A DNA stretch of 64,000 bases from an uncultured Parachlamydiaceae bacterium (GCA_963742415.1 CAVULX010000004.1:1272766-1336765), one strand, 5' to 3'; positions 1 through 22,100 are shown, counted from the stretch's first letter. Numbers and translations: made by a program. The notes: generated by a model from the letters alone, not told the origin.

Positions 1-729
1 GCCTTTGCCCCCAATTTAGGTTGGCACAACGTCCCTTTGCAAAGCGATCTTTCAGACGCGCTTCAACTTCCCGTAATTGTCACCAATGATGTTCGCGCAG
101 CCGCCTGGGGCGAATGGTTATATGGAGCCGGTCAAGGGTTTCAAGACCTTCTTTGCCTCTTTATTGGAACAGGAATTGGAAGCGGCATCATTGTAAATGG
201 TCAAATGATTTGCGGAGCTAACAATGCCGCGGGAGAATTGGGGCATACAACGTTGATTCTAAATGGGCCCAAATGCACATGTGGAAACTTCGGATGCCTG
301 GAGACTGCAGCTGCCGGGTGGGCCATCGCCAAAATAGCAAAATCGGAAATAAAAGAAAAGACGCAGACAGCAAGCACGATCCTTCGAGAAGCCGAGGGGC
401 AATTGGAAAACATTACGGCACAACATGTGGTCAAGGCAGCCATCAATGGGGATTCGATGGCTCAAAAAATCATCCAAGGAGCTTCAGATGCTCTTGCAGC
501 GGGATGTATCAGCTTTGTCAATGCTTTTAATCCCAGCCGCCTCATCATCGGCGGAGGATTGGGTTTAGCTATACCTGGCCTTTTGGAACACATCGAGAAA
601 GAGGTGAAGAGCAAAGCGCTGCAAGCAGCTACGCAGCATTTAACTATCGTTCCTGCAAGCCTCAAAAATGATGCCGGCCTCGTAGGAGCCGCTAGCTATG
701 CTCTAGACAAGTTATTGCAAGAGGATTAA
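1..729 (+). CDS. ROK-family sugar kinase (glucokinase-like), 5'-truncated by the window edge
   Basis: The frame is open from base 1 (AFAPNLGW...). Motifs NDVRAAAWGE, GTGIGSG and GELGH, and the CTCGNFGCLE zinc motif. Confidence 0.93.
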   Translation, partial: AFAPNLGWHNVPLQSDLSDALQLPVIVTNDVRAAAWGEWLYGAGQGFQDLLCLFIGTGIGSGIIVNGQMICGANNAAGELGHTTLILNGPKCTCGNFGCLETAAAGWAIAKIAKSEIKEKTQTASTILREAEGQLENITAQHVVKAAINGDSMAQKIIQGASDALAAGCISFVNAFNPSRLIIGGGLGLAIPGLLEHIEKEVKSKALQAATQHLTIVPASLKNDAGLVGAASYALDKLLQED

Positions 730-5540: not shown

Positions 5541-7304
5541 TTACAAGACAATTCCCTTATAAACGAGCTTTTTTTCAGGATCGAGAGTCACAAGCTGCCC
5601 CTCTTTGAGAATGCGCATCGCGGCATCGGCGCGTACAATGAACGGTTTCCCCAATTTTTTCCCAATTTCAATCAGGTATTTTTCCGATTCATTATCATCG
5701 ATATGATTTTGGAGAACGACCGCTAAAGCTTCCTGAATCAAGGGCAGGTAAGATTCATCGCAGCGAGGAATTACGAGAATTTGGTCCCTTACTGTGTAAG
5801 TTTTAACAGATTCAGGGGAGAGCACAATGCTCACGTTGCTGTGCACCTTCTTCCCCTGCCCATATTCCCCTCTGACAAGGACTTCCCCAATATTTTCGAC
5901 GATCATCATATTGGTCGTCCCTGCAAAGCCAAAAGGGGAACCCGCCGTGACTACTACGAGATCCCCATGTTCCACAATTTTATGGTCAAGAGCATAAGCG
6001 CTGATCTTTTCAAAAGCTTCCGAAATTGTTGTACAGGCATCTTTAAGGACTGGGATCACCCCCCAGTTAAAAGCCATTTGGTGATAACACTTTTCATTGG
6101 GGGTCATCGCTATGATCGGCATAGAGGGGCGCAGCCTTGAAAGAAGACGCGCTGTCGAGCCGCTGCTTGTAAAAGCAAAAATCGCTTTGGCATCGGAACT
6201 GTAGGCTGTTTTGACTGCAGCTAAAGTCAAAGCCGAAGGGACATCATGATACACTAGTTGGGAGTGTTGATCGAAGAAAATGCGGTAATTAAAATCCCCT
6301 TCAGAAGCTTTGATGATGCTTTGCATCACATTCACTGTTTCAAGGGGATATTTCCCCACAGCAGTTTCCCCGGAAAGCATTACTGCAGAAGTGCTGTCAT
6401 AGATCGCATTGGCGACATCGGAAACCTCTGCTCGGGTAGGCCTCGGATTTTTAATCATCGACTCAAGCATCTGCGTAGCGGTGACAGAAGGTTTTCCGGC
6501 CAAGTAACTTTTCCTGATCATCACTTTTTGCAACCTGGGCACTTCGCTCAAAGGAACTTCGACTCCTAAATCTCCACGGGCGATCATGACCCCATCGGCC
6601 GCTTGGACAATCCCATCAAAATTTTGAACGCCTTCACTGTTTTCAATTTTAGCGATCACCAAAATATCTGATTTTTTTTCTTCGGTTAATAGCTTTTTTA
6701 TGGCCAAGATATCTTCAGGAGTGCGCACAAAAGAAGCTGCTATAATGTCGACATCATGTTTGCAGCCAAAACGTATATCCTCTTCATCCCTTTTCGTCAT
6801 CGAAGGGAGATCTAGATCTACGTTCGGAACATTGACTCCCTTCCCGGATTTCAGAATCCCTTCGTTTTCCAATTCGATAAGAACCCCTTTTGGAGTGACT
6901 TCCAGCACATGAGAACCAATATAACCATCATCAAATAAAACTCTGGCGCCAGGGGTTAATTGATTAAGAATGGAACTGGGCAAAATAGTCAAAAAATGAT
7001 CATCCCCTTCCACCTCTTCCTTAACTAGAAGCAACTGGTGCCCTGCATTAAGGGAAAGATGCCCCCCTTTAATTCTGCCGATCCGGACTTCAGGCCCTTT
7101 TGTATCGAGCATGATCGCCAAAGGGACTTTGAGCTCGGCCCGAGCTTCTTTGAGATAGTAAATGACCGTTTGATGGTGAACATGGGTTCCATGACTAAAG
7201 TTAAGGCGGGCCACATTCATGCCGCCCTTAATGAGTTCAAAGATTTTTTCTCGACTGTCACACGAGGGACCAATCGTGCAGATGACTTTTGTGTGGATTA
7301 CCAT
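5541..7304 (-). CDS. pyk: Pyruvate kinase with C-terminal PEP-utiliser-like extension
   Basis: TKVICTIGP, RLNFSHG, DTKGPE, IAKIEN, ARGDLG, TQMLESM, MLSGETA. Confidence 0.97.
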   Translation of the reverse strand: MVIHTKVICTIGPSCDSREKIFELIKGGMNVARLNFSHGTHVHHQTVIYYLKEARAELKVPLAIMLDTKGPEVRIGRIKGGHLSLNAGHQLLLVKEEVEGDDHFLTILPSSILNQLTPGARVLFDDGYIGSHVLEVTPKGVLIELENEGILKSGKGVNVPNVDLDLPSMTKRDEEDIRFGCKHDVDIIAASFVRTPEDILAIKKLLTEEKKSDILVIAKIENSEGVQNFDGIVQAADGVMIARGDLGVEVPLSEVPRLQKVMIRKSYLAGKPSVTATQMLESMIKNPRPTRAEVSDVANAIYDSTSAVMLSGETAVGKYPLETVNVMQSIIKASEGDFNYRIFFDQHSQLVYHDVPSALTLAAVKTAYSSDAKAIFAFTSSGSTARLLSRLRPSMPIIAMTPNEKCYHQMAFNWGVIPVLKDACTTISEAFEKISAYALDHKIVEHGDLVVVTAGSPFGFAGTTNMMIVENIGEVLVRGEYGQGKKVHSNVSIVLSPESVKTYTVRDQILVIPRCDESYLPLIQEALAVVLQNHIDDNESEKYLIEIGKKLGKPFIVRADAAMRILKEGQLVTLDPEKKLVYKGIVL

Positions 7305-7421
7305 GATCCCCTCTCCTCGTTTAATCGAATTATCATCAGTTTATCAAACGCACAAAATAATTCAAATTAATCGGGCAGAAGATTATTTTAAAGTTATAAA
7401 TGAGTGTATAGGGAGGTAGTT

Positions 7422-8072
7422 ATGAAATGGACCATGTCTCGATATCGAAGAACATTGAAAATTTGGCAATTGGGCTGCTCCAAATTTTCAGTGCTCTTCG
7501 GTATATTGGCAATAATCGTTTCTTTCTCTTTGAACGGTGAAATACAAAAGCTCCAAGTCAAATGGCAAGCACCCTCATGTTCGACAGGATGTGCTCAATT
7601 GATGATCAAGCAATTTCAAGCAATTCCCGGTGTAGCTCAAGTTTACATGAATCAGCCCGCTGGTCAAATGGACTTGCGATGGAAACCCAACTACCCTTTT
7701 TCGTTTACCCCTATCAATAATGCAATGGCCATGGTGGGTTTAAGTTATACAGAAGTTCGCATTCGAGTTCGAGGCTATCTACAAGTTTCAGGGAACAACT
7801 ATTCTGTTGTTTCTTTGGGTGACAACACACCCTTTGTTTTGCTCGCCCCCGCCCAAGCACAACAGGGTCGTTATGTGATTGAATACAATATTGCCAGCCA
7901 CCAGCTAACCCCCTATCTAATCGCTCAACTTCAACAAGGAATTCAAGATAATCGAGTCGCTGTTGTGGAAGGACCTCTATTTCAACCTGAACGTTCACCA
8001 CCTCTGTATCTTGTTATCCAACAGTTGAATTATGTGATCACGGAAGAAGAACAGTCCCAACAAAAGCAATAG
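7422..8072 (+). CDS. Exported protein with an HMA-like (heavy-metal-associated) N-terminal domain
   Basis: GGAGG before ATG 7422, a signal/TM segment, and SCSTGCAQ...IPGVAQV resembling an HMA fold. Confidence 0.7.
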   Translation: MKWTMSRYRRTLKIWQLGCSKFSVLFGILAIIVSFSLNGEIQKLQVKWQAPSCSTGCAQLMIKQFQAIPGVAQVYMNQPAGQMDLRWKPNYPFSFTPINNAMAMVGLSYTEVRIRVRGYLQVSGNNYSVVSLGDNTPFVLLAPAQAQQGRYVIEYNIASHQLTPYLIAQLQQGIQDNRVAVVEGPLFQPERSPPLYLVIQQLNYVITEEEQSQQKQ

Positions 8073-8201: not shown

Positions 8202-9296
8202 ATGGTGAACAATCTTTTAAGCCGCACTGTGGATGATTGGACATATTTTTCCATCTCACCAATTGAAAATGTTTACACATTCCACAATCTGTCAGATAAC
8301 CAAGCAAACGGGAAGGAAAAGCATTCACTCTGGGGGACTATTCCAGACACGACTTTAAATCCGCAAAATTTAAGCAATATCTCATCTAACTCTGGAAGCA
8401 AACCAATAGATGAAAAGGTGTATAAATGCTTCATGTGTCAAATGGAAACTATTCCTAAACAACGACGCGGAGGTCCTTGGGGTACAAACACCCTTTGTAA
8501 TCCTTGTGGTACGAAATACGCTAAAAAAGCTTCTCTTTTAAAAGACAAAACAAACCAGGACATTCCTTACATTCCATTAGAATTTTATGTTAAACCTCAA
8601 AAGCATTATTCTTTTATAGGAGTAGGATTCAAAGAAGTGCCTGAATTCTTAGAGGAAATAAAGCAATATTTTACACCCACGAAATGTAAAGAAATCGAGG
8701 AATTAGCAAATAATTTTATAGAAATCGGGAAAAAAACACAGAAATACAAAAAAACTCTTCTAAAAAACACTCCAATAAATGCTGACCATATCAGAACTTA
8801 TGTAGAACTTGCAAGATCCCTATGTGCTATTGAGGACAAATCTAAAAAAAATAGCAGCAATCCGTCCAAAAATAGGGAAAAGATGAAAAACACATACAAA
8901 CTTGTCAGTGAGCAAAAATATGTAGGAATTACTCGAGAAGGTAAGCAAGTAGATCTTGAAAGGCTATCCCCCGATTTGGAAGCAATAGAAGCTTATATAA
9001 TCAGCAGGGAAAAGCGTATTATAGCAACAAATGTTACTGCAAACAGATCCAGAAAAACAGGAACAAAAAGAAAAAAATCTGCTGTGGATTCTGTGAAAAA
9101 GATTCCGCAACGTCGTGACCCTACTGAAGAGAAAACCAATACATCTAAAGAGAAAGCCTCAGAAGCTCTTACTATTAATTCTGAAGGAGCTGCAAAACCG
9201 CTAAGAAAAAAAAGAAAAATTGATTCAGTGGTAGTTTCTGCGGAAAAGACTCTCAGTCGTCATGATCTGAAATTTATTTTAAATTCAGATAAATGA
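8202..9296 (+). CDS. GATA-type zinc-finger protein, paralog 1 (most divergent)
   Basis: CFMC-X19-CNPC with GPWGTNTL, basic RKKRK, C-terminal HDLKFILNS. Confidence 0.85.
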   Translation: MVNNLLSRTVDDWTYFSISPIENVYTFHNLSDNQANGKEKHSLWGTIPDTTLNPQNLSNISSNSGSKPIDEKVYKCFMCQMETIPKQRRGGPWGTNTLCNPCGTKYAKKASLLKDKTNQDIPYIPLEFYVKPQKHYSFIGVGFKEVPEFLEEIKQYFTPTKCKEIEELANNFIEIGKKTQKYKKTLLKNTPINADHIRTYVELARSLCAIEDKSKKNSSNPSKNREKMKNTYKLVSEQKYVGITREGKQVDLERLSPDLEAIEAYIISREKRIIATNVTANRSRKTGTKRKKSAVDSVKKIPQRRDPTEEKTNTSKEKASEALTINSEGAAKPLRKKRKIDSVVVSAEKTLSRHDLKFILNSDK

Positions 9297-9527
9297 CTCA
9301 ACTTTTGAAGGGGGTTTCTCCCCCCTAAAGTTTAGGACGAAAAACTTCCAAATGCTTAACCGCGAATATCGCAGGCATTCAGCCTGGGAAAGGAGTAAAC
9401 TATATATTCTTTTAATTTTAAGAATTTAAACATTACCAGTTATTTTTAATTTTACAAATAAATTATGTTTGATTATTTTTTTTGTGATTCTTTAAACAAC
9501 TTTAACTTTTAATCAAGAGGTGGATTT

Positions 9528-10742
9528 ATGTCCTTTCTCAGTGAACTTGGTAATAACTATAATAATTGGGGAAATTACATCCCTCCAGATTACATGAGGA
9601 GCCCGTCGGACAATACGTCAACAAGCCAAACAAGCACGGGGGAAGACTGTAAAGACATGGGCGCAATGGATGAGTTAAACACTCCTGGACTTGAAATATC
9701 TTCACCGCCTAATTTACATGCCTTACCATGGTTCAATCATGCATTCAGAGCCCTTATAGATAAGGTCGAAACTGCGAATATTATTGCTAGCCTTTCAACC
9801 TCCCCCGCCCCTGTCTACATTAACATGAACATAAGCATGAATTTTCCGAATATCTTTATAGATTCAAACGAAGGCGCAAACCAATCGCAATCCCCAGCTC
9901 TGGAGAAAAAGAGGAAAAGGGTGAGAAAGGAAACAGATAAAAGTCTTATATGTTTCGTATGTTTCAATAAAAAAACACAACAAATGTGGCGCAGTGGTCC
10001 TTATGGTAAGAAAACACTTTGCAATGGATGTGGTCTAAAGTATTCAAAAGAGAGATTTAGACTAATACAAAAATGGATAAAGCACATTCCACTACAATTT
10101 TATGCAAAACCTAAGGGGGTTAAAAGGTCACCTACTTCATTAAAGGACATAAAAAACTATTTTGATGAAAAGAAATTTCAAGAACTCGAGGCATTAACTG
10201 AGAAATATATATCAATTATGAGATCATCCGAAAATCCAAATGCACTAATAGTTGGAAGTGATCTCATCACAGCTTATATTCGACGCGCTAAAAAACTCTG
10301 TTCTGTTGAAGAGGCTGAGCAAACCTCATCTAGAATAGGAGAAGGCACGAGATGCGCTCGGCTAATAATAGGTGAATATACTGGAGCTACCCAGGACGGC
10401 AAAATAGAAGCGCTTCCTGAAGGACTCGCATCAGATGCTGCTGCAATCGAAGCTTATGTCAAATGCTTTACTTTGTATAGTAATAGGGATCGTTGCCCGA
10501 CAGAAGAAAAAATCGAGCACTACAAAAGGCAACTGAAATCAAAAACCCCCGAAACATCAAAAGAACCACAAACTAAAAGGCAAAAAATTGATGGGAGTGA
10601 CATTGTAAGTCCTATTGACGAGATATCCCTCATGCCTGAAGAGCAAATTGATCTTACTGACGAGCCTCAAGCAATTAGAAAGCGATTTCGCTTTTATTTT
10701 AAATTCAATGGCGACTCACTTCCGATAGTCCAGAACCCATAA
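9528..10742 (+). CDS. GATA-type zinc-finger protein, paralog 2
   Basis: CFVC-X19-CNGC (WRSGPYGKKTL), with KKRKRVRK and KRQK. Confidence 0.88.
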   Translation: MSFLSELGNNYNNWGNYIPPDYMRSPSDNTSTSQTSTGEDCKDMGAMDELNTPGLEISSPPNLHALPWFNHAFRALIDKVETANIIASLSTSPAPVYINMNISMNFPNIFIDSNEGANQSQSPALEKKRKRVRKETDKSLICFVCFNKKTQQMWRSGPYGKKTLCNGCGLKYSKERFRLIQKWIKHIPLQFYAKPKGVKRSPTSLKDIKNYFDEKKFQELEALTEKYISIMRSSENPNALIVGSDLITAYIRRAKKLCSVEEAEQTSSRIGEGTRCARLIIGEYTGATQDGKIEALPEGLASDAAAIEAYVKCFTLYSNRDRCPTEEKIEHYKRQLKSKTPETSKEPQTKRQKIDGSDIVSPIDEISLMPEEQIDLTDEPQAIRKRFRFYFKFNGDSLPIVQNP

Positions 10743-10977
10743 TTTCAACTTCTAGGCCGAAGGCTTTGGCCTTCGAGTCTTAAGGTTTGGACGTTTTGTG
10801 AAAAAAATATTTATATTATCGCATCTCTGTCGCCGCTATCGTGTGCATTTATTAAATAATCTAACATTACCATGTATTTTTAATTTTATAAATAAATTAT
10901 GTTTGATTATTTTTGGTGATAATCTATTATTTTATGAGTCTTTAAACAACTTTAGCTTTTAATCAAGAGGTAGATTT

Positions 10978-11868
10978 ATGTATTTTCCCGATGAATTTAG
11001 TTGGTATGTAAATAGTAATTTCTATAATCGGAAAATTTATCCCGATCTATATAACACGGGGGCCCCATCGGACAACACATCAACAAACCAAGCAAACACG
11101 GCGGAAGCCTGTATAAACTTGGACGCAAGGGATGAGATAGACGCTCTCACAGATGAAATATTTACACAAATTATTCCACAAACGGATGATTCACCTTCTA
11201 TCAATCAATTGAAAGCCCTTGCAAGCAATATCCAAAGTGCAGTTATTATTCCTAACCCTCTTCGAACCACCCCTTCTGCCTACATTAACTTGCAACCTTT
11301 TTCGAGTGTCTTTATAAATTCGAACGATGGCGCCAACCAATCGCAGCCTGAAAATTCGGATCGTGATTCAGTCCAGTGTGATTTAACCCAGAAAGAAGTT
11401 TCGCAAACAGAGACTAATTCTAACGATGCCCCACCCATTAAAAAGAAGAAAAGGGGGAGAAAGGAATTAGATAAAAGTGCTTTTCAATGTTTCATGTGCT
11501 TGGACCGAGAGTCGCCTGAGTGGCGCAAAGGTCCTTGGGGCCGAAATACTTTTTGTAATAAGTGCGGTCTACAATATAGTAAGTATGTAAAACTGTTAAA
11601 CAAAAAGATAATTTTGTGTATTCCTTTCGAATTTTATAAAAAACCTTCTTGGGCTACATCTATAGAAGGAAGAATGTTAAACCGCGAGCCTGAATACTAC
11701 GGTCTAGCAATAAAACATCTTCCTGAAAATGAGAAGAAATCTTTTATAGATCTGACTAGCAGCAAACTTGATTTGCATTATATTTTAAATCATCCTGAGG
11801 GAACCGCTGTCACGGAAAGTAATCAAAGGGTGGAGTTTAGACCACGAAGAAAAAAAAAGAAGATATGA
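10978..11868 (+). CDS. GATA-type zinc-finger protein, paralog 3 (shortened)
   Basis: CFMC-X18-CNKC (SPEWRKGPWGRNTF), KKKKRGRK, LDLHYILN, RRKKKK. Confidence 0.88.
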   Translation: MYFPDEFSWYVNSNFYNRKIYPDLYNTGAPSDNTSTNQANTAEACINLDARDEIDALTDEIFTQIIPQTDDSPSINQLKALASNIQSAVIIPNPLRTTPSAYINLQPFSSVFINSNDGANQSQPENSDRDSVQCDLTQKEVSQTETNSNDAPPIKKKKRGRKELDKSAFQCFMCLDRESPEWRKGPWGRNTFCNKCGLQYSKYVKLLNKKIILCIPFEFYKKPSWATSIEGRMLNREPEYYGLAIKHLPENEKKSFIDLTSSKLDLHYILNHPEGTAVTESNQRVEFRPRRKKKKI

Positions 11869-12045
11869 TTCGGAAATATGACAAAGCTACTGAGGCCTAA
11901 TAAATTCCCTTGGGGAATAACTCCAGAGAGAATGTATCTGCCCCTCTTTTAGTTAAGAAGCGCTTTTGACGGCTCGAATACCGTGTATGTTTATGAAATA
12001 ATTAAACATTACCATGTAATTTTTGATTTTATAAAGATATTTTGT

Positions 12046-12074
12046 TTGATTGTTTTTTTGTAATAGACTATTAT
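12046..12074 (+). promoter_or_regulatory. Sigma70/sigma66-like promoter TTGATT-N17-TATTAT, conserved upstream of GATA paralogs 3-6
   Basis: Same hexamers with 17-nt spacing before paralogs 4, 5 and 6, and 16-nt spacing before paralog 3, followed by an AGAGGT ribosome-binding site. Confidence 0.6.
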
Positions 12075-12123
12075 TTTTTGAGCATTTAAACAAAATTAAC
12101 TTTTAATTTAGAGAGGTAAGTTT

Positions 12124-13320
12124 ATGGATCCCTATAATAAGTTTATGGAACCCTATAATAGGTATGCTTCGGGAGAATATTGGAATCCCCCAACCCAATC
12201 AAACATTCAAAACAACTCACGCTCGGGTACTTTTAGTCGATTGACCAATATCGTTCTGCCGTCATTGAGAAGTTTGCCCTTTCCAGAAAGATTGGAACAT
12301 CCTGCAAGCAGAACCAACCAAGCAGCTATAAGAGCCAACAATGAGGCTGGATCTGCTCAACATTCGCAAAACCGCACCGAACCAAATGTAACCATTAATG
12401 TCGACTATCACCCCCAAGTAGTTATCCAAACCAGTCCACAAGAACAATATTCTCTCATCAGACCTCGATCCAAAAGGGGAAGAAAGGCACTGGATTCAAG
12501 TCAGTTTGTATGTTTAGTATGTTTCGAGCGCGAAACAGGACAGTGGCGCTCAGGACCTTGGGGTGGTAACACACTTTGCAACGGATGTGGTATAAGCTAT
12601 TCAAAAAGTATAGATAAACTAGAAAAGAAACATATAAAGCACATTCCACTACAATTTTATGCAAAACCTGAGGGGGTTCAAAATATAAAAAACAGAACAT
12701 TAGAAAACTCACCTTATTTCTTAACAGACATAAAAAACTATTTTGATGAAAAGAAATTTAAAGAACTCAAGTCATTAGCTGAGAGATATAAATCAATTAA
12801 GAGATCATCCTGGTACCCACAAACATCTAAAGTTGAAATAAATGCTAACCACATCAACGCTTATATTCAACGTGCTGTAAATCTCTGTTCTCTTGAAGAA
12901 GCGGCTAATCCATCTGACGAAGGAGGCACGAAATGCCTTCCAGTGAGAATAGGTAAATATAACGGAACTACCCACGATGACAATATAGAAGAGCTTTCTA
13001 AAAACCTAGCAAAAGACGCTGCTGCAATCGAAGCTTATGTCCATCACTTTACTTGGGATAGAGGTCTTTGCTCGACACAAGAAAAATACGATCACAACAT
13101 AAGACAACTGGCTTTGCTAGAAACATCTGAAGAACCACAAACAAAAAGGCGAAAATTCGATATGAATGACCGTTTAAATCCTGTTCCTGTTGAGGATGAC
13201 TCCCTAATGCTTGAAGATCGAATTGCTCCCACTGAAGAGCCTAAAGGAGCACAAACACAACCAAGAAGAGACGAGCGTCTTGATATAGCTTTTATTTTAA
13301 ATTCTCCAATGGACGACTAA
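12124..13320 (+). CDS. GATA-type zinc-finger protein, paralog 4
   Basis: CLVC-X18-CNGC (QWRSGPWGGNTL), KRRK, LDIAFILNS. Confidence 0.9.
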   Translation: MDPYNKFMEPYNRYASGEYWNPPTQSNIQNNSRSGTFSRLTNIVLPSLRSLPFPERLEHPASRTNQAAIRANNEAGSAQHSQNRTEPNVTINVDYHPQVVIQTSPQEQYSLIRPRSKRGRKALDSSQFVCLVCFERETGQWRSGPWGGNTLCNGCGISYSKSIDKLEKKHIKHIPLQFYAKPEGVQNIKNRTLENSPYFLTDIKNYFDEKKFKELKSLAERYKSIKRSSWYPQTSKVEINANHINAYIQRAVNLCSLEEAANPSDEGGTKCLPVRIGKYNGTTHDDNIEELSKNLAKDAAAIEAYVHHFTWDRGLCSTQEKYDHNIRQLALLETSEEPQTKRRKFDMNDRLNPVPVEDDSLMLEDRIAPTEEPKGAQTQPRRDERLDIAFILNSPMDD

Positions 13321-13361
13321 CTTACCTTTCCAGCCCTCCAGAACCCATAATTTCAATTTAT

Positions 13362-13387
13362 AGGCCGAAGGCTTTGGCCTTCGGCCT
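13362..13387 (+). terminator. Hairpin downstream of GATA paralogs (probable terminator)
   Basis: AGGCCGAAGGC-TTTG-GCCTTCGGCCT. Copies at ~10754 and ~14807. Confidence 0.6.
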
Positions 13388-13535
13388 TAGAGTTTTACCC
13401 ATAGGCATCAATAATTAAACATTACCATGTATTTTTAATTTTATAACGATTTTTTGTTTGATTATTTTTTTGTGATAGACTATTATTTTTTGAACATTTA
13501 AACAACATTAACTTTTAATTAATAGAGGTAAATTT

Positions 13536-14765
13536 ATGGACCCCCATTTCCAGGCTTGGTCAAATTTGTATCCTTTAGGAGAAAATTGGAATCCTCCAAC
13601 CCAACCAACCATAGTTTCAAACAACCCCCACTCGGGTACACCTAGTCTATTGACCAATATCCGTCTGCCGCAATTGATAGCTTTGTCCTGTATAGAAAGT
13701 CCGGAAAATCCTGCAAGGAGAACCAACGAAGCGGCTATAAGAGCTAACAATCTAACCATTAATGTCAACTATCACCCCAGTATCGACTATCACCCCCAAG
13801 TAGTTGTCCAAACCAGTCCAGTGGAAAGAGGTGGCCAAAATCAAAAATTACCAAGACAATATTCTTTCATCCCACCCGAACCAAGGGTTAAAAAGAAAAG
13901 GTCGGCAACAAAATTAGATACAAGTCAGTTAGATACAAGTCAGTTTGTATGTTTCGTATGTTTCGAGCAAGGAGCAGAAAAAAAGTGGCGCAGTGGTCCT
14001 CAAGGTGATAACACACTCTGCAACGGATGTGGTGTAGAATATGGAAAAAATATATTCAGACTGCGAAACGAAGATATAAAGCACATTCCTCTACAATTTT
14101 ATGCGAAACCTGAAGGGGTTCAATCTATAGAAGGCCTAAATGAATCACCTGAATTTTTACGGAGCATAAAAAAATATTTTGATGAAACGAAATTTAAAGA
14201 ACTCGCGTCATTAGCTGAGAAATATAAATCAATTAAAAGATCAAGCGGTGGCCCACAAAAAACAGAAAAAGTTGAAATAAATGCTAATCACATTAAAGCT
14301 TATATTCAACGCGCGAGAACGCTCTGTTCTCTTAAAGATGAAGCTAATGAAACCTCATCTGGAAGGAGAGGCACGAAATGCCATGCGGTAAAAATAGGTA
14401 AATATGAAGGAACTACCATTGAAGACAAAAAAGAAAAGCTTCCTAAAAAACTAGCTTCTGATATTGCTGCAATCGAAGCTTATGTCAATTGCTTTACTTG
14501 GGAAAGAGATTTTTATACGATAGAAGAACAACATAATTACAACAAAAAACAACTGGACTTGCTAGGAGATGAACCATCAAAAAAACCGCCAGCAAAAAGG
14601 CAAAAAATTGATCTGAATGACATTTTAAATCCTACTGAAGAGGGATCCTCAATGATTCAAGATCAAATTGCACCTACTGGCGAGACTATAGTAACACAAA
14701 CACAACCAAGAAGAGACAAGCGTCTTGAAATAGCTTTTATTTTAAATTCTCCAAACGACGACTAA
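13536..14765 (+). CDS. GATA-type zinc-finger protein, paralog 5
   Basis: CFVC-X19-CNGC (WRSGPQGDNTL), KRQKIDLNDILN, LEIAFILNS. Confidence 0.9.
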   Translation: MDPHFQAWSNLYPLGENWNPPTQPTIVSNNPHSGTPSLLTNIRLPQLIALSCIESPENPARRTNEAAIRANNLTINVNYHPSIDYHPQVVVQTSPVERGGQNQKLPRQYSFIPPEPRVKKKRSATKLDTSQLDTSQFVCFVCFEQGAEKKWRSGPQGDNTLCNGCGVEYGKNIFRLRNEDIKHIPLQFYAKPEGVQSIEGLNESPEFLRSIKKYFDETKFKELASLAEKYKSIKRSSGGPQKTEKVEINANHIKAYIQRARTLCSLKDEANETSSGRRGTKCHAVKIGKYEGTTIEDKKEKLPKKLASDIAAIEAYVNCFTWERDFYTIEEQHNYNKKQLDLLGDEPSKKPPAKRQKIDLNDILNPTEEGSSMIQDQIAPTGETIVTQTQPRRDKRLEIAFILNSPNDD

Positions 14766-14963
14766 CTTACCTTTCCAGTCCTCCAGAACCCATAATTTCA
14801 ATTTATAGGCCGAAGGCTTTGGCCTTCGGCCTTAAGGTTTGGCATTTTAAATAAATTCCCGAAGGGAATCTTGAGATTGGACATTTTGTAAAAAAATATT
14901 TACATTATCACATCTCTATCGCCGCTACCGCATAGGCATCAAGCTAAAGTAAACTATTTCTTA

Positions 14964-15028
14964 CCAGGCTGAAAGCCTGTCATATAATAGCCTGGGGCAG
15001 CGCCCCAGGTAATATCATGCATAATCAT
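14964..15028. repeat. REP-like unit (CAGGCTGAAAGCCTG and CCTGGGGCAGCGCCCCAGG hairpins)
   Basis: Near-identical to units at 16591-16730 and related to 32191-32300 beside the Y1 transposase. Confidence 0.75.
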
Positions 15029-15090
15029 TTGCTTTTTCACTGATCGGTTCCATTTTATTTTGACTGACCACTTTCCTTTTTCCTTTTTTC
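15029..15090 (-). pseudogene. Duplicated fragment of the 3' part of the FGE-domain gene
   Basis: TTGCTTTTTCACTGATCGGTTCCATTTTATTTTGAC... matches 16773-~16833. Confidence 0.85.
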
Positions 15091-15266
15091 CGTTAGATAT
15101 CCATATTTCAACCGGAGTGTTCGCTACCATCTATGTTTATTAAATAATTAAACATTACCAATTGTTTTTAATTTATAAAAATATTTTATTTGATTATTTT
15201 TTTGTAATAGATTATTATTTTTTAAGCATTAAACAAAATTAACTTTTAATTAAGAGAGGTAAATTT

Positions 15267-16451
15267 ATGGAACCCTATAATAGGTATGCTCCGGGAGAAT
15301 ATCGGCATCCCCCAACCCAACCAAACATAGTTCAAAGCAACCCACACTCGGGTAATTCTCCATTGATAGATTTGACGATGGAAAGTTTGGGAAATATTGC
15401 AAGTAGAACCAACCAAGCAGTTATATCACAAAACGACACCAGACCAAATGTTACCATTAATGTCAACTATCGTCCCCAAGTAGTTATCCAAACCAGTCCA
15501 ATAGAAAGAGATAGCATTCCTCAAAGAAAATTTACTTTCTACGAATTCCAATCAACTCCAAGGGAAAGGAGAACAAAGCCAGTAGATACAAGTCAGCTTG
15601 TATGTTTCGTATGTTTTGAGCAAAAAACAGGGGATCTGTGGCGCAGTGGTCCTCACGGCAATTACACACTTTGCAATGGATGTGGTGTAAAGTATGGAAG
15701 AAATATATATAGCCTGAAAAAAGGATTTATAAAGCACATTCCACTACAATTTTATGCAAAACCTGAGGGAGTTCAATCTATAGAAGGCAGAGAATTAAAC
15801 GACTCACCCGACTTTTTACAGAACATAAAAAAATATTTTGATGAAAATAAATTTAAAGAGCTCGCGTCATTAGCTGAGAGATATAAATCAATTAATAGAT
15901 CAACCGGTGGCCCAAAAACAGCAGTAGTTGAAATAAAAGCTAATCACATTAAAGCTTATATTCAACGTGCTAAAAACCTCTGTTCTCTTAAAGATGAAGC
16001 TGATCAAAACCCATCTGGAAGGGGAGGCACGAAATGCCGTGCGGTGAAAATAGGTAATTATGACGGAACTACCTTTGATGGCAAAACAGAAGAGCTTTCT
16101 AAAGAACTAGCAATAGACGCTGCTGCAATCGAAGCTTATGTCCATCAGTTTACTTGGGATAGAAGTCTATGTTCGACACAAGAAAAATATGATCACAACA
16201 TAAGACAACTGGCCTTGCTAGAAACATCTGAAATAGATGAAACATCAAAAGAGCCACAAGCAAAAAGGCGAAAATTTGATATCAATGACATTTTAAATCC
16301 TGTTGAGGATGACTCCTTAATGCTTGAAGATCGAATTGCTCCTACTGGCAAGCCTGAAGGGACACAAACACAACCAAGAAGAGATTTTCGTTTAGAATTA
16401 GCTTATATTGTAAACCCTTCAAATAACGACTCATTTAATTTCAATTTGTAG
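15267..16451 (+). CDS. GATA-type zinc-finger protein, paralog 6
   Basis: CFVC-X19-CNGC (LWRSGPHGNYTL), KRRKFDINDILN, LELAYIVN. Confidence 0.9.
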   Translation: MEPYNRYAPGEYRHPPTQPNIVQSNPHSGNSPLIDLTMESLGNIASRTNQAVISQNDTRPNVTINVNYRPQVVIQTSPIERDSIPQRKFTFYEFQSTPRERRTKPVDTSQLVCFVCFEQKTGDLWRSGPHGNYTLCNGCGVKYGRNIYSLKKGFIKHIPLQFYAKPEGVQSIEGRELNDSPDFLQNIKKYFDENKFKELASLAERYKSINRSTGGPKTAVVEIKANHIKAYIQRAKNLCSLKDEADQNPSGRGGTKCRAVKIGNYDGTTFDGKTEELSKELAIDAAAIEAYVHQFTWDRSLCSTQEKYDHNIRQLALLETSEIDETSKEPQAKRRKFDINDILNPVEDDSLMLEDRIAPTGKPEGTQTQPRRDFRLELAYIVNPSNNDSFNFNL

Positions 16452-16590
16452 GACGAAGGCCACTGGAGTTTGGCATTTTAAATAAATTCCCGAAGGAAAT
16501 CTCGAGATTGGACATTTTGTGAAAAATTATTTCCATTATCACATCTGTCCGCTGCCGCATAGGCATGAAGCTAAAGTAAACCATTTCTTA

Positions 16591-16730
16591 CCAGGCTGAA
16601 AGCCTGGTTTACAATAGCCTGGGGCAGCGCCCCAGGTAATATCATGCATAATCATTAGCAGGCTGAAAGCCTGCCATATAATAGCCTGGGGCAGCGCCCC
16701 AGGTATTGTCATAAAAATCATTCACAGGCT
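16591..16730. repeat. Tandem REP-like array (about 2 units)
   Basis: Repeated CAGGCTGAAAGCCTG...ATAGCCTGGGGCAGCGCCCCAGGTA. Confidence 0.8.
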
Positions 16731-19023
16731 AGGAAGCATCTTTTACGGTTCGGAAACCCAGGTTGTATTCAATTGCTTTTTCACTGATCGGTTCCATTTT
16801 ATTTTGACCGACCACTTCTTTTTTTCCTTTTTCCGGTTCTGTCGCTGTCCATTCTTTCAAATGTCCATCTGCTGTGATGGCAGAACTATTGTTTGCTCGC
16901 ATCCATTCGAAAACCGTTGGCAATCGTTTTTTTGTCCAGAGGGCATAAGCTTTGGCATCTTCATAGGAGATATTCACCACCGGCCGCTTTTCTTGCCCGA
17001 CTGGAAATTTCCCTCCGCGCCAATGGAAGGGAGTCTGGTGGCCTGTGGCCGCGACAAAATCTTCATATTCACTATTTGATACAGGATAGCGATCAATATA
17101 AAATGCATTTCCTTTAATAAACAGCATCGGCTTATTCACTGTTGGCACAAACGTCGCTTTTTGGGGAGAATCCCCTTGGGCTTCCGAAAGCATGATTAAA
17201 TCCTCCTCAGGCACATAAGCCATCTGCTCCACACCTTCGATCCATGAAGATTTATTCCCCATATCTTCAATGAGAGGATCGCTCTCTTCTATCAAAGCTT
17301 GAAATGCAGACAACTCTTCAGGGGTCAATTCTTCCCGATTTTCTTTCTCTGCATTGCCCCATAACCAATCATTGGACTCTGATTTTTTATCGGCCTCTAA
17401 TAAATCAGAATCAGCTTTGGGTTGATCTCCCTTTTCCACTTCAGGCTGCTCTTCCCCTTCAGGTTGCCTTGCCTCTTCAGGTTGCTTCTCATCTTTGGTT
17501 TCAGGGTTTTGACTGGCGGTTTCCATTTGTGAAGAGGACACCGCTATCTCATTCTCTTTATTTTCTGCAGCCGTTTCCTCATCCAGATCTAAACCTGTAT
17601 AAAGATCCTTGTCATTCAAAATCTCCTCAAGAGTCCAAGTGGGTTCATTGGAAAAAAGCGACAAAAGATCTTGCTCATCTTTATCAAGGGTTTCAACTTT
17701 CTCCTTTTCACTCCCTTCTAAATTTGCTTCAGAATTATCCGCAAAAATTTCATTCGTTCTATCTTCTTTTTCTATCTCCCCACCTTCAGTTGAGGAAGGA
17801 AACTTTTTATTAAAATCCTCATCATCTTCAAGGGCTGCGATATCAAACTCTTCGGGGTCGACATCGACCTTTTGAATATCTTCAAACATTAGCCATTCAA
17901 GGATTTCCTGGTAATTCGCTTCATCGAGAGCGATAGCTTGTTCTTTAGAGATATCCTCTTCCTCTTCTTCTGAATCATCAAAAGAAATATCGATAACCCA
18001 TAGAGGCTCTTCTAAGGCACTAAACAACGGACCCGGCTCGGTAAGCTTTTCCATTCCGAGAAGCTCAAAATCCCGAAGAGCAGAGGGGGATAGCGACATA
18101 GCTCCATGGGCTTCAAGCAACAACTTGCCATGAGCTCCAATCTCGTCCGCCGCCGTCGACTGCAATCCATTCATGAGAGCCTCGTCAAGTTCATCAGGAA
18201 AGGAGTGAGACCGATCAGCATGAAAACTTTGATCTTCTTTGCTGCCAAAACCTTGGCCAGGAGCCTGAATAGTTTCAATCTGATCCCATTTTAGCCGCAA
18301 GCTTTGCTTGTGATTGGGAAGTCGGAGGGATAAGGAAGACCCTTTTATAAAATGGAAACCTAAATCGACAATCTTTTTTCCTTCCAACACAGACCCATGC
18401 AGCCCCCCATTAAAGCATAGCTTAATGATATTCTCAGGATTCAGGGACTTCTCTTCCCAGCCATCTGTCACGATGATCGGATCCGTGATAAAAGCTGAAA
18501 AATGATCTCCATTTGTCAATTCAAGAAAAAATAGAGGTTTATGTGTCGCTTCCATTTTCAAGGAGCGCTCTTTGAGGACAATGAAGTTGACGATCGAAGG
18601 ATCGATCTCTTTTTTCATCCGATGTGCAGAATCTTGTTTTGTAGACTCTGTCACCCAAATTTGAAATTTGCCTTTTCCCAAGTCCCCAATAAAATTTTGC
18701 CCATCGCTGGTAATGTACTGTATCTTGAGAGGATTTCCCCCATCTTTTATCAGGCTGATTGCCGCAATGTTTTCAACTTTAAATTCGAGGTCTCCAAAAG
18801 AATAATGAATGGAGGGGAGCTTATCCAGGCTTCCATATAACCGGGTGCCATCTGTCAATATGATAAAGTCTTCGATGCAATGCCGATTGCTACATATACC
18901 TTTCCATTCCGAAAAGGTGAAAGGAGATCTCCCCCGTTGCTGCGTTAAATTTGAATCATCGGCAAACGCTATTCCATTAGAAAGTAGGCTAAGAAAAAAA
19001 ACAACCTTCCGCATGATGTGCAT
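16729..19023 (-). CDS. Exported protein with an acidic linker and C-terminal FGE-sulfatase/SUMF1-like domain
   Basis: Signal peptide; C-terminal FYIDRYPVSNSEY, RPVVNISYEDAKAYA..KRLPT..EW and LGFR. Confidence 0.8.
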   Translation of the reverse strand: MHIMRKVVFFLSLLSNGIAFADDSNLTQQRGRSPFTFSEWKGICSNRHCIEDFIILTDGTRLYGSLDKLPSIHYSFGDLEFKVENIAAISLIKDGGNPLKIQYITSDGQNFIGDLGKGKFQIWVTESTKQDSAHRMKKEIDPSIVNFIVLKERSLKMEATHKPLFFLELTNGDHFSAFITDPIIVTDGWEEKSLNPENIIKLCFNGGLHGSVLEGKKIVDLGFHFIKGSSLSLRLPNHKQSLRLKWDQIETIQAPGQGFGSKEDQSFHADRSHSFPDELDEALMNGLQSTAADEIGAHGKLLLEAHGAMSLSPSALRDFELLGMEKLTEPGPLFSALEEPLWVIDISFDDSEEEEEDISKEQAIALDEANYQEILEWLMFEDIQKVDVDPEEFDIAALEDDEDFNKKFPSSTEGGEIEKEDRTNEIFADNSEANLEGSEKEKVETLDKDEQDLLSLFSNEPTWTLEEILNDKDLYTGLDLDEETAAENKENEIAVSSSQMETASQNPETKDEKQPEEARQPEGEEQPEVEKGDQPKADSDLLEADKKSESNDWLWGNAEKENREELTPEELSAFQALIEESDPLIEDMGNKSSWIEGVEQMAYVPEEDLIMLSEAQGDSPQKATFVPTVNKPMLFIKGNAFYIDRYPVSNSEYEDFVAATGHQTPFHWRGGKFPVGQEKRPVVNISYEDAKAYALWTKKRLPTVFEWMRANNSSAITADGHLKEWTATEPEKGKKEVVGQNKMEPISEKAIEYNLGFRTVKDAS

Positions 19024-19101: not shown

Positions 19102-22100
19102 GTGAATCATCATCGTCAAATCATTTTAAAAAAAGTCAAAGTTCATAATCTCAAATCGATCAACCTTTCCTTAGATACTAATGAGCTGATCGTTTTTACA
19201 GGGGTGTCCGGATCAGGCAAATCCTCGTTAGCTTTCGATACCCTCTATGTGGAAGGGCAGCGACGCTATGTCGAATCCCTTTCGACCTTTGCCCGGCGTC
19301 AATTGGGGGAGATGGCAAAGCCTGATCTGGAACATGCCTCCGGCATCTCTCCCACCATTTCAATTGAACAAAAAACTGCCGGAAGAAATCCCCGCTCTAC
19401 TGTCGGAACCATGACCGAAATCTACGATTACCTTCGCGTGCTATATGCTCGCGTCGGCATTCCCCATTGCCCCGTCAGCGGTGAACCTGTTGCTCCTCAA
19501 AGCCGTGAACGGATCATCAAAACGGTCCAAAATCTTCCCGATGGAAAAAAACTGGTTATCTTAGCCCCCTATGCTAAGGGAAAAAAAGCGGAATTCAAAG
19601 AAGATTTTCAAGAGCTTCTTACGAAAAGGGTACATGCGGGCTCGAGTCGATGGCAAGATCATCAATTTGAAGCGATGAAATTGTTTTAGATGGAAGTGTC
19701 GCCCATGATGTCGATGTTGTTATCGATCGGCTTACCGTTAATAAACGAAAATCATTCTCGGATAGCCGAGGCGATCACTAACGCTCTTAATCTAGGCAAG
19801 GGGTATGTGCTACTCCTGGATCCTGACACCTACGAAGAACAACTTTTTTCCATGCATGCCTATTCCCCAAAATCGGGCTTGTCTTACTCAGTCTTGGAAG
19901 CCGCACGATTTTTCTTTCAATAGTCCTTCCGGTATGTGCCCTCGGTGTCATGGCATGGGAAGAGTGCAAGAATTCGATTTAAAGGCGATCATCAATCCCG
20001 AGCTAAGCATTGCTGAAGATTGCTGCTCCATCGGCGAGTTCCTACCAAACTGTCCGCTACGGCAACATCTATGATAATTTAGCTGAGATCTATGAGTTTA
20101 GTGTCCACACCCCTTGGAAAAAACTTTCTGAGCAAGCCAAAAAGGTATTCCTCTACGGCACAGAAAAAAAATGGACCCGGATGTACTTTGTCCATCCTAA
20201 TACCGGAGCCATGTGGACAGATCATGTCCAATGGCGGGGTGTGTTGCATGAAGCCCACATCCGCTATGCAGAAGCTAAAAGTGAAAGCTACCGCAAAAAA
20301 ATGCAGAGCATCATGCGCGAAGGATTTGCCCGGAATGCCATGGAGACCGCCTTAAGCCTTATCCTGCGGCACGCTTTGCTGAATGGAAAACGGATCTACG
20401 AACTTGACCGCCATGACCGTCAAAGAGTGCCTCCATTTTTTTGAACACCTCCCTTTATCCCCTCAAGAGCAACTGATTGCAGAAGAACTACTCAAAGAGA
20501 TTCGACAACGACTGCAATTTCTGCTTGAGGTCGGGCTTGCACTATCTCGACCTTAGACCGGACAGCTCCCACTCTTTCCGGCGGGGAAGCCCAGCGGGTG
20601 CGCCTCGCCTCGCAAATCGGCTGCGGCCTTGTCGGCATCACCTATATCCTCGATGAACCTTCCATCGGGCTTCATCCTCGGGATAATAAAAAGCTTATCC
20701 ATACTTTGAAACATCTTCGCGATATGGGAAACACCGTCATCGTCGTCGAACATGATGAAGAAACCATCTGGGAAGCTGATCGGATCGTCGACTTTGGACC
20801 CGGACCCGGAATTCGCGGCGGAGAGATCGTTGTCAACGGAGATCTATGCTCGAGCTCATCCACAATCCCAACTCCCTAACAGCAGGCTATCTAACCGGAA
20901 AACTGCAAAATCCCGATCCCTAAAAAACGGCGAAAGCCGTTAAAAGAATCGATCGAAATCCTAGGCGCTACCCATCACAACCTTAAAAAAGTCAACGTGA
21001 AAATCCCTTTAGGCGTGTTTATTGCTGTGACAGGAGTTTCGGGATCGGGCAAATCTTCTTTGATCACCGACATCTTATATCCCGCCTTGTCCAACTCACT
21101 TGCATGGTAGGAGAACACCCTGTCGGCGCCCATAACGAAATCAAAGGGATCGAAAATATCGACAAAGTGATCGCCATCGACCAATCCCCCATCGGCCGAA
21201 ATCCCCGTTCCAATCCTGCCACCTACATCAAAGTTCTTCGATGAAATCCGCGACACTTTTCAGCCAGCTTCCTGAAAGCCAAGCCAGAGGCTATAAGCCT
21301 GGACGCTTTAGCTTTAATGTCAAAGAAGGCTCCTGCCCCCAATGTGAAGGGATGGGAATGATCAAAATCGACATGGATTTCATGGAAGCTGCCTGGGTTG
21401 ATTGCCCCCTATGCAAAGCAAAACGGTTTGACCATGAAACCCTGTCCGTGTTTTTCAAAGGAAAAAACATCTACGATGTTCTGGAAATGGATGTGGCGAA
21501 GCTCTTGAATTTCTTTGCCAACATCCCCTCACATCAAACATAAGCTCGAGACTTTGCAGCAAAGTGGGCATGGAATACATCAAACTGGGGCAATCCTCGA
21601 CGACGCTTGTCCGGAGGAGAAGCCCAACGGATCAAACTGGCCAAAGAGCTGTCCGCCCTTCCACCGGCAAAACACTCTATATTTTCGATGAGCCTACAAC
21701 AGGACTCCATTTCCATGACATCAAACATCTTCTGGAAGTTTTGCACGAACTGGTCGACCGAGGCAATACTGTCCTGGTCATCGAACACAACATGGATATT
21801 GTCAAAACAGCTGATTGGATCATCGACCTTGGCCCAGAAGGGGGCGAGGAAGGCGGAAAAGTGATCGCTACCGGCAAACCTGAACAGATTGCCAAGATGG
21901 ACACGCCTACAGGCCATGCCGTTGATGAGGCTTTGCATCACGATCTACAAAGAAAAAATCGAAGCGGCCCTGCATCTCTGCAAAGAGAATCAAAAAGAGG
22001 TAAAGGGAAAGGGAAAAGGAACGAGCATCCATGAAATTATCGGTCACCGGAGCTGAGCAAAATAATTTAAAAAATGTCAATGTCACAATTCCACGCGAAA

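Follow-up and report, generated by a model that had tools for sequence, protein, structure and literature searches.

The DNA analysed here, which we call the window, is a stretch of 64,000 nucleotides from an uncultured Parachlamydiaceae bacterium (G000:C4:1272766-1336765). Positions 8202-16451 of its plus strand hold six co-oriented intact open reading frames (ORFs), each with one GATA zinc finger, which we named W1 to W6 (Table 1). An initial annotation of this DNA had described six co-oriented, intronless paralogues, and all six were recovered as intact frames where it had placed them. The array lies about 1.28 Mb into a 1.34-Mb contig of a genome assembled as 2.69 Mb in four contigs and 84% complete. 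The six proteins align end to end and share 24 invariant columns, which cluster in the finger (the four cysteines, R, GP, G, T and CNxCG) and in an IPxxFYxKP motif, I..IP..FY.KP being invariant directly after the finger. An AGAGGT sequence stands 6-7 nt 5' of the ATG of all six genes, inside a 40-nt stretch conserved across the array, and the bacterial ribosome-binding sites announced by the annotation are present before every start codon.

The Pfam GATA profile (PF00320, curated cut-off 26.8 bits) matched the six proteins, and four of the six scores exceeded the cut-off. A six-frame search of the whole genome with this profile returned W1-W6 as the sole matches, five of them above the cut-off (30.1 bits for W5; W1 reached 26.0 bits), and none of 14 control genomes was matched. 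The cysteine pattern is C-X2-C-X18-C-X2-C in W3 and W4, with X19 in the four other proteins. The motif WR(S/K)GPxGxxT(L/F) is found in five paralogues, W1 reading RRGGPWGTNTL, and the finger of the third paralogue reads SPEWRKGPWGRNTFCNKCGLQY; spacing, motif and this reading were all as the annotation had given them. Each protein carries a single X18 or X19 finger and is not built of tandem X16 fingers. When a profile of chlamydial fingers was compared with solved structures, 16 distinct sequences matched at E ≤0.001, with GATA-3, GATA-1, Arabidopsis GATA18, GATA-4 and AreA at the top, and the W6 finger alone matched AtGATA18 with an E-value of 4.5e-5. We also compared the AlphaFold model of W6, whose mean predicted local distance difference test (pLDDT) score is 41.9 and ranges from 45 to 70 across the finger, with 48,161 chains. 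Residues 111-149 superimposed on AtGATA18 (8j48_A) with Z 5.2 and a root mean square deviation of 1.0 Å over 38 residues at 37% identity; this was the sole chain with Z ≥5, GATA-1 (3vd6_C) and AreA (2vus_I) reaching 3.5 and 3.1. Pfam, the sequence matches to solved structures and the predicted fold agree that the W1-W6 fingers are true eukaryote-type GATA fingers, as had been claimed.

Many of the best single-finger matches were short proteins with KRGRKxxDKSxFxC just before the finger and a Phi-x-x-Phi-Phi-N motif near the C-terminus, as in MSIQTLLN, MKIATLLN, DLQFILN or ISYILN. We scored this tail motif in the last 40 residues, with shuffled sequences as a control. It was found in five of the six window proteins (0.1 in shuffles), in 9 of 18 chlamydial relatives, in 10 of 20 matches labelled Amoebozoa and in 36 of 187 unlabelled matches (2.0 in shuffles), and in none of 18 fungal and two plant matches; shuffles gave 0.0-0.3 tail motifs per labelled group. 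The KRGRK basic motif was absent from the same 18 fungal and two plant matches. Its strict form [KR]G[RP]K, placed at most 22 residues before the finger, occurs in 6 of the 20 labelled Amoebozoa and in W3 and W4 (2/6); K/R clusters occupy this position in W1, W2 and W5, and W6 has only PRERRTKP there. A stricter form of the tail near the C-terminus was found in 4 of 4296 ORFs of the genome, three of the four being GATA paralogues, and we rejected the tail as a genome-wide effector or secretion signal on this count.

The 13 EukProt matches that were looked up came from six species, of Gocevia, Paradermamoeba, Endostelium, Phalansterium, Rhizomastix and Mastigamoeba, which the NCBI taxonomy places without exception in Amoebozoa. 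Named NCBI and UniRef matches belonged to Cavenderia, Pelomyxa, Balamuthia and Paramoeba, to fungal white-collar-2 (WC-2)-type proteins and to two plant proteins. Since the tail motif was also present in genome-derived proteins of Balamuthia and Mastigamoeba, it is a eukaryotic trait and not merely symbiont RNA caught in transcriptomes. A Gocevia protein shares 59% identity with W3 across 56 columns. The initial annotation had proposed that a host-derived DNA-binding domain was captured; the nearest named relatives are indeed Amoebozoa, and the proposal can be refined. Because the tail and, in W3 and W4, the basic motif are shared with small amoebozoan GATA proteins and were not found in the fungal and plant matches, these sequences point to the capture of a whole amoebal gene, not of the DNA-binding domain alone.

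GATA fingers were also found in other chlamydiae. In a set of 60 relatives together with the genome itself, 6 of 61 matched at E ≤0.01, among them 4 of 36 other genera of the family and one weak match with an internal stop in another family. Among 400 scored Chlamydiota genomes, 11 had a match at E ≤0.001, 10 of them above the cut-off; leaving aside the genome itself, these came from three families (f1, 5/45; f27, 3/23; f5, 2/69) and from no other. Where the annotation envisaged all prokaryotic proteomes, our PF00320 check covered these 400 genomes and the 14 unmatched controls, complemented by one strict pattern, G[KRG][NDH]TLCNAC, over 185,579 species with one genome per species. This pattern is narrow and its counts are a floor only: it returned 12 stretches, four of which encode relatives, all from metagenome-assembled genomes of Chlamydiales or Parachlamydiaceae. 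The GATA genes of the relatives are short (110-352 residues) and sit at other loci, with ordinary bacterial genes on either side. In G010, the nearest relative as judged by pyk (75% identity), there are three tandem GATA genes with AGAGGA or TGAGGA sites (G010:C2, about 818-821 kb, L012/L019), which encode 160, 192 and 176 residues, the last with two fingers; this trio is flanked by the genes for an RsgA-like GTPase and for a KdpD-like protein, at a locus that differs from that of the window array. Two f5 genomes encode proteins with six (G236:C70, L026, 345 residues) and five (G340:C14, L025, 255 residues) tandem C-X2-C fingers that match PF00320 only weakly, at 20-30 bits, and look unlike the single-finger proteins of the window.

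A search for proteins of similar length returned only three paralogues from the genome itself. Among 1.84 billion representatives searched with a profile built from W1-W6, 3685 proteins matched at E ≤0.001, and only four of these match beyond the finger: the genome's own P0001, P0003 and P0004, and P0005. The latter is an orthologue of W3 on a separate metagenome contig of 1269 nt, 80% identical over its full length, with finger and tail kept, and labelled 'GATA zinc finger' by its source. No relative was found among 46 pattern matches in viral contigs, nor in metagenome contigs among 125 matches to an alignment pattern and 261 to a pattern based on P0005. Two proteins of 54 residues, P0237 and P0238, fall into the 90% cluster of W6 yet look unrelated, which is probably a clustering artefact. 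Judging by these matches, the GATA-finger genes are a small chlamydial family and not a singleton, and the six-gene array is the largest and most elaborated case among the genomes searched.

A tree of 72 finger modules over 56 columns, in which 42 of 69 inner branches are left open, placed the six window fingers in one group (Shimodaira-Hasegawa-like approximate likelihood ratio test, SH-aLRT, 83). It is nested in a cluster (89) that also contains proteins of Gocevia, Paradermamoeba, Endostelium and Physarum, two G010 proteins and WC-2-type fungal fingers. A clade of the six with the two G010 proteins, a grouping named after inspection of the tree, was not rejected by the approximately unbiased (AU) test (p-AU 0.664), nor was a clade of all 26 chlamydial fingers (p-AU 0.371). 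The direction of transfer, from eukaryote to bacterium, is judged from the wide occurrence of GATA fingers in eukaryotes as opposed to 11 of 400 Chlamydiota genomes.

Table 1. Features of the GATA array and of its surroundings. Nucleotides are counted from the first position of the window; residues are those of the protein named.
Feature	Nucleotides	Residues	Strand	Remarks
pyk	5541-7304		-	
Hypothetical gene, left flank	7404-8072		+	222 aa; kept beside pyk in relatives
W1 upstream region				shorter copy of the region upstream of W6
W1	8202-9296		+	364 aa; most divergent copy; PF00320 22.3 bits
W1 finger	8427-8507	76-102	+	X19; RRGGP replaces WRxGP
W1 tail	9267-9284		+	LKFILN
W2 upstream region	9418-9527			copy of the region upstream of W6
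W2	9528-10742		+	404 aa; PF00320 34.8 bits
W2 finger	9951-10031	142-168	+	X19; preceded by EKKRKRVRKE
W2 tail				degenerate, SLPIVQNP
3' flank of W2	10720-10775		+	family D16; G+C-rich hairpin GGCCGAAGGCTTTGGCCTTCGGCC
W3 upstream region	10852-10977			copy of the region upstream of W6
W3	10978-11868		+	296 aa; PF00320 32.1 bits; short form without middle domain
W3 finger	11488-11565	171-196	+	X18; basic motif KKKRGRKELDKSAFQC
W3 tail	11773-11790		+	LHYILN
W4 upstream region	11995-12123			copy of the region upstream of W6
W4	12124-13320		+	398 aa; PF00320 31.2 bits
W4 finger	12511-12588	130-155	+	X18; basic motif SKRGRKALDSSQFVC
W4 internal tail copy	13156-13185			degenerate, KRRKFDMNDRLNP
W4 tail	13285-13302		+	IAFILN
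3' flank of W4	13328-13383		+	family D16; same hairpin
W5 upstream region	13407-13535			copy of the region upstream of W6
W5	13536-14765		+	409 aa; PF00320 26.5 bits
W5 finger	13950-14030	139-165	+	X19
W5 internal tail copy	14607-14636			KRQKIDLNDILNP (LNDILN after KRQKID)
W5 tail	14730-14747		+	IAFILN
3' flank of W5	14773-14828		+	family D16; same hairpin
Duplicated flank between W5 and W6	14837-15094		+	copy of the DNA following W6 (16468-16838); D18 94%, D9 93%, D19 89%
W6 upstream region	15140-15266		+	conserved, about 130 nt; repeat families D5, D7, D13
W6	15267-16451		+	394 aa; PF00320 36.6 bits
W6 N-terminus		1-98		low complexity
W6 basic stretch		99-112		
W6 finger	15603-15683	113-139	+	X19
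W6 segment after finger		155-166		IKHIPLQFYAKP, invariant in W2 and W4-W6
W6 middle domain		about 180-300		predicted alpha/beta domain
W6 K/R cluster and second tail copy		333-344		KRRKFDINDILN; second copy in W5 and W6, degenerate in W4
W6 internal tail copy	16275-16304			KRRKFDINDILNP (INDILN after KRRKFD), the copy of the preceding row
W6 tail	16398-16415	378-383	+	LAYIVN
FGE-sulfatase gene, right flank	16729-19023		-	764 aa; C-terminal FGE-sulfatase domain (66 bits)
uvrA	from 19102			

The array occupies the interval between pyk and uvrA named in the annotation, although not directly, as a gene for 222 residues and a gene for a 764-residue protein with an FGE-sulfatase domain intervene. 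In G010 and G004, pyk, the 222-residue gene and uvrA (with a partial FGE-sulfatase gene before uvrA in G010 only) are contiguous, with no GATA gene between them. This backbone is kept without GATA genes and the array is therefore an insertion of 8.3 kb. Only pyk and the 222-residue gene were found in the compared stretch of G003; pyk and uvrA are about 6.7 kb apart in G001, which gave no match to the GATA queries. The G+C content of the array is 34-39% as opposed to 41.9% for the genome, and its G+C content at third codon positions (GC3) of 0.27-0.35 corresponds to the 2.7-19th percentile of 1039 long ORFs. Within the duplicated flank between W5 and W6, positions 15022-15094 (73 nt) match 16766-16838, which belongs to the 3' end of the coding sequence of the adjacent minus-strand gene, with 89% identity. 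A fragment of a neighbouring gene was thus duplicated inside the array, indicating that the last duplication happened in this chromosome. The array grew by tandem duplication in place, which bears out the amplification that had been proposed. A perfect G+C-rich hairpin, CCTGGGGCGCTGCCCCAGG, is found on either side of W6 (14991-15009 and 16685-16703), within the duplicated flank. The annotation had named a chimeric assembly with eukaryotic DNA among the findings that would overturn it; the syntenic flanks, the ribosome-binding sites and the duplicated bacterial fragment speak for a bacterial chromosome, and on these sequence features the array genes are bacterial and chromosomal, not a chimera.

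The conserved region upstream of W3-W6 includes a promoter-like TTGATT-17-TATTAT about 77 nt before the ATG. The hairpin of the repeated 3' flanks is likely a transcript end; it was missed by the terminator scan because no T run follows it. On the far side of the array, the 764-residue FGE-sulfatase protein has a signal-like N-terminus and a long acidic middle rich in E and D, and only about 210 of its residues were matched in G010. The adjacent uvrA is broken over 19102-24829: similarity to the intact UvrA of G010 (1899 residues) at more than 60% identity is spread over frames 1, 3 and 2, residues 275-437 and 481-718 are uncovered and the region consists of many short ORFs, so that it is either a pseudogene or the product of indel errors in the assembly.

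Outside the finger, the N-termini of the six proteins contain 39-46% S/T/N/Q/P, as compared to 25% in ORFs of the genome of at least 300 residues. They have no hydrophobic stretch, the highest Kyte-Doolittle mean over 15 residues being 1.23 in the first 65 residues; the low-complexity N-termini without signal peptide that the annotation described are present in this form. The isoelectric points (pI) range from 8.0 to 9.6. K[KR]x[KR] clusters were found in all six proteins, including the KKRKR, KRRK and KRQK clusters already reported. KR(R/Q)K(F/I)D lies near the C-terminus of W2, W4, W5 and W6, with KKRKID in W1. In W5 and W6, a second, internal copy of the tail motif stands just 3' of the K/R cluster (Table 1). 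The IKHIPLQFYAKP segment has a weak counterpart in the G010 proteins and none among the aligned amoebozoan proteins. Five of the six paralogues, all except W3, have a middle domain of about 150 residues. Modelled on its own, this domain reached a mean pLDDT of 50.5, its core (residues 33-147 of the domain) scoring 60-91. It showed no convincing fold relative (best VIA Z 3.5 among the 48,161 chains, best Foldseek E-value 0.28), its only Pfam match was to V-ATPase_C at E 0.024, below the cut-off, and the ESM Atlas gave no usable match to it. NCBIfam had no family for W1, W4 or W6, and Pfam found no PAS domain in the window's proteins. By these comparisons the middle domain is an orphan, seen only in this genome.

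Sequence evolution was estimated pairwise with the Nei-Gojobori method for W4, W5 and W6 only, on short segments and with no significance test. Synonymous divergence (dS) among the three genes was 0.19-0.61. The ratio of nonsynonymous to synonymous rates (dN/dS) was 0.50-0.58 in the finger segment, 0.80-1.01 in the middle domain and 0.39-1.29 at both ends. In each gene, 136-195 single substitutions would give a stop codon, yet none of the six frames is interrupted; a frame free of selection would have a probability of 0.002-0.0001 of escaping a stop at 0.10-0.15 substitutions per site. Fast protein change combined with kept frames, fingers and motifs suits an effector family and argues against debris.

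On this basis, we propose that a Parachlamydiaceae ancestor took from its amoebozoan host a whole small single-finger GATA gene, which would have encoded KRGRK as a basic motif, a finger resembling type IVb and, at the C-terminus, a Phi-x-x-Phi-Phi-N tail. Bacterial expression signals and the orphan middle domain of about 150 residues would have been acquired next, and amplification in place in this genome would have given six diverging copies. The type III system may export the proteins, with their disordered N-termini as the leading part; consistent with the type III context that the annotation gave for Chlamydiae, a search limited to FHIPEP (SctV/FlhA family) found two export-gate genes in this genome (842 and 722 bits). 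In the amoeba, nuclear entry could depend on K/R clusters, one before the finger (absent from W6) and the KR(R/Q)K(F/I)D cluster near the C-terminus (W2 and W4-W6; KKRKID in W1). The finger would bind GATA-type sites in host DNA, and the partner that serves the host's own small GATA factors would be engaged or titrated through the retained tail, with a change in host transcription as the result. We infer secretion, nuclear import, DNA binding and the effect on the host from sequence features, and we consider it modestly probable that W1-W6 are secreted mimics of transcription factors, acting in the host nucleus and derived from a captured amoebozoan GATA gene. A bolder version, in which the symbiont turned a complete host GATA factor into an effector, retained both its finger and its partner-docking tail, supplied an extra domain and now injects six rapidly diverging forms of it that occupy GATA sites of the host and reprogramme amoebal functions such as growth or encystment, is put forward tentatively, as possible though somewhat doubtful.

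Several observations weigh against this proposal. W1 stays below the Pfam cut-off as a protein and has no Trp in its finger, and the Ala of CNACG is replaced by G, K or P in all six proteins, which read CN(G/K/P)CG; some copies may thus bind DNA differently or no longer at all. The K/R clusters may be nuclear-import signals, but as pattern matches they are of a kind common in A+T-rich proteomes. Transcriptome contigs underlie several of the amoebozoan matches, and RNA of symbionts might in principle be among them. The tree is poorly resolved: it places the window fingers with amoebozoan and WC-2-type fingers and shows neither the donor nor the number of transfers. Finally, relaxed constraint is also in keeping with the dN/dS near 1 of the middle domain, and the estimates could be distorted by gene conversion.

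Other explanations account for part of these data. The genes could come from a eukaryote while their products stay in the bacterium, as regulators or nucleoid-associated proteins on its own chromosome. Basic proteins with a DNA-binding-type finger, the lack of a scorable secretion signal and a promoter-like region for each gene, as in ordinary bacterial genes, would all suit such an internal role. However, five of the six copies and 9 of 18 relatives among the chlamydiae have kept the tail, which is difficult to account for unless a eukaryotic partner exists, and the patchy distribution (11/400), the absence of the insertion at this site in two compared relatives and the high dN/dS are unlike a core regulator, so that we regard an internal role as unlikely. 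Alternatively, the proteins could be secreted decoys that sequester either the binding partner of the tail or a finger-recognising host factor, in the cytoplasm or the nucleus and without specific DNA binding. In favour of this, the tail is the feature most specifically shared with host proteins and W5 and W6 carry it twice, the finger shows substitutions (the lost Trp of W1 and CN(G/K/P)CG), and the title of PDB entry 8j48 names a phytoplasma effector in complex with the GATA finger of a plant protein, which shows only that GATA fingers can bind proteins. Against this, the invariance of the four Cys, R, GP, G, T and CNxCG and a dN/dS that is lowest, at about 0.5, in the finger fit a working finger, and the K/R clusters flank it as they do in amoebozoan proteins; decoys without specific DNA binding seem improbable to us.

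That the array is evolutionary debris, recently acquired, amplified and drifting without function, would agree with dN/dS values of 0.8-1.3 in several segments, with GC3 at the 2.7-19th genome percentile, with the restriction of the long form to this genome and with the loss of the middle domain in W3. It is very unlikely in view of six frames kept open despite the 136-195 stop-making substitutions available in each (0.002-0.0001 per gene), of the conserved ribosome-binding sites and upstream regions, of the 24 invariant columns, clustered in the finger and IPxxFYxKP, and of the W3 orthologue, 80% identical with finger and tail intact. Eukaryotic DNA misassembled onto a bacterial contig, or contamination, which the low G+C content (34-39%, below that of the flanks and the 41.9% of the genome), the four-contig, 84% complete assembly and the broken uvrA beside the array might suggest, is extremely improbable for intronless genes with AGAGGT sites and bacterial-type upstream regions, which enclose a fragment of a bacterial neighbour gene between two flanks syntenic with relatives and have counterparts with bacterial neighbours in no fewer than five further Parachlamydiaceae genomes, some of them assembled into one or two contigs.

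If W1-W6 are indeed mimics of host transcription factors, a captured finger together with a host-type partner motif would amount to direct bacterial writing on host promoters, with a simple and testable DNA-recognition code, and the short genes of other Parachlamydiaceae would belong to a wider, unnoticed family of such host-derived mimics. The six copies, the short relatives and their amoebozoan counterparts would form a natural series for the transition from host gene to effector. The same series bears on the partner of the tail motif in amoebae and on the host programmes that a chlamydial symbiont must control.

The closest known proteins are the small single-finger GATA proteins of Amoebozoa, a subfamily for which we found no name, with examples among transcripts (Gocevia fonbrunei, Paradermamoeba levis, Endostelium zonatum) and genome models (Balamuthia mandrillaris, Mastigamoeba balamuthi). 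Their parts follow one another as in the window proteins: first a low-complexity N-terminus, then KRGRKxxDKSxFxC, an X18 finger reading TPEWRxGPxGxxTLCNACG, a short basic stretch and the tail. Unlike their amoebozoan counterparts, the window genes are bacterial, lack introns and have ribosome-binding sites; all but one of the six proteins add the IPLQFYAKP motif and the orphan middle domain, together with the KR(R/Q)K(F/I)D cluster, four have an X19 finger, and CN(G/K/P)CG stands for CNACG. Fungal WC-2-type and plant GATA factors have a finger of the same type and length, in a class that we take to be type IVb, WC-2-type proteins being among the best matches and Arabidopsis GATA18 the closest solved structure. 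The basic motif and the tail motif were not found in the 18 fungal and two plant matches, and the window proteins have no PAS domain. The tail may also resemble eh1, Sin3-interaction or short activation motifs.

Bacterial proteins that act in the host nucleus, the nucleomodulins, include TAL effectors, AnkA and the chlamydial SET-domain protein NUE. The proposed logic of the window proteins is alike, namely a secreted protein that would reach the host nucleus and alter transcription. To our knowledge, nucleomodulins use bacterial-born DNA-binding repeats or chromatin-modifying enzymes rather than the canonical finger of a eukaryotic transcription factor accompanied by a host-like partner motif. 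Amoeba symbionts carry many eukaryote-like domains, and those described are mostly protein-interaction or ubiquitin-related modules. Our literature search returned no description of GATA fingers in chlamydiae, among Legionella effectors or among nucleomodulins, leaving uncontradicted the statement of the initial annotation that no bacterial GATA-finger effector family has been described. GATA is absent from the main texts of two papers on chlamydial eukaryote-like proteins (PMC9666466, PMC4209131), whose supplements, which may list Pfam domains, lay outside the search. According to the main text of Domman et al. 2014 (PMC4209131), expanded eukaryote-like families of Parachlamydiaceae (F-box, BTB and others) form lineage-specific tandem arrays that arose by recent duplication. 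Those families and the window array have in common a eukaryote-type domain, tandem duplication and amoeba symbionts as bearers; the families of that text are linked to ubiquitination and have many more members, whereas the window array carries a finger of the sequence-specific DNA-binding type. Tandem expansion of eukaryote-like families in Parachlamydiaceae was thus already known, and what is new here is a putatively host-derived family of transcription factors in amoeba symbionts.

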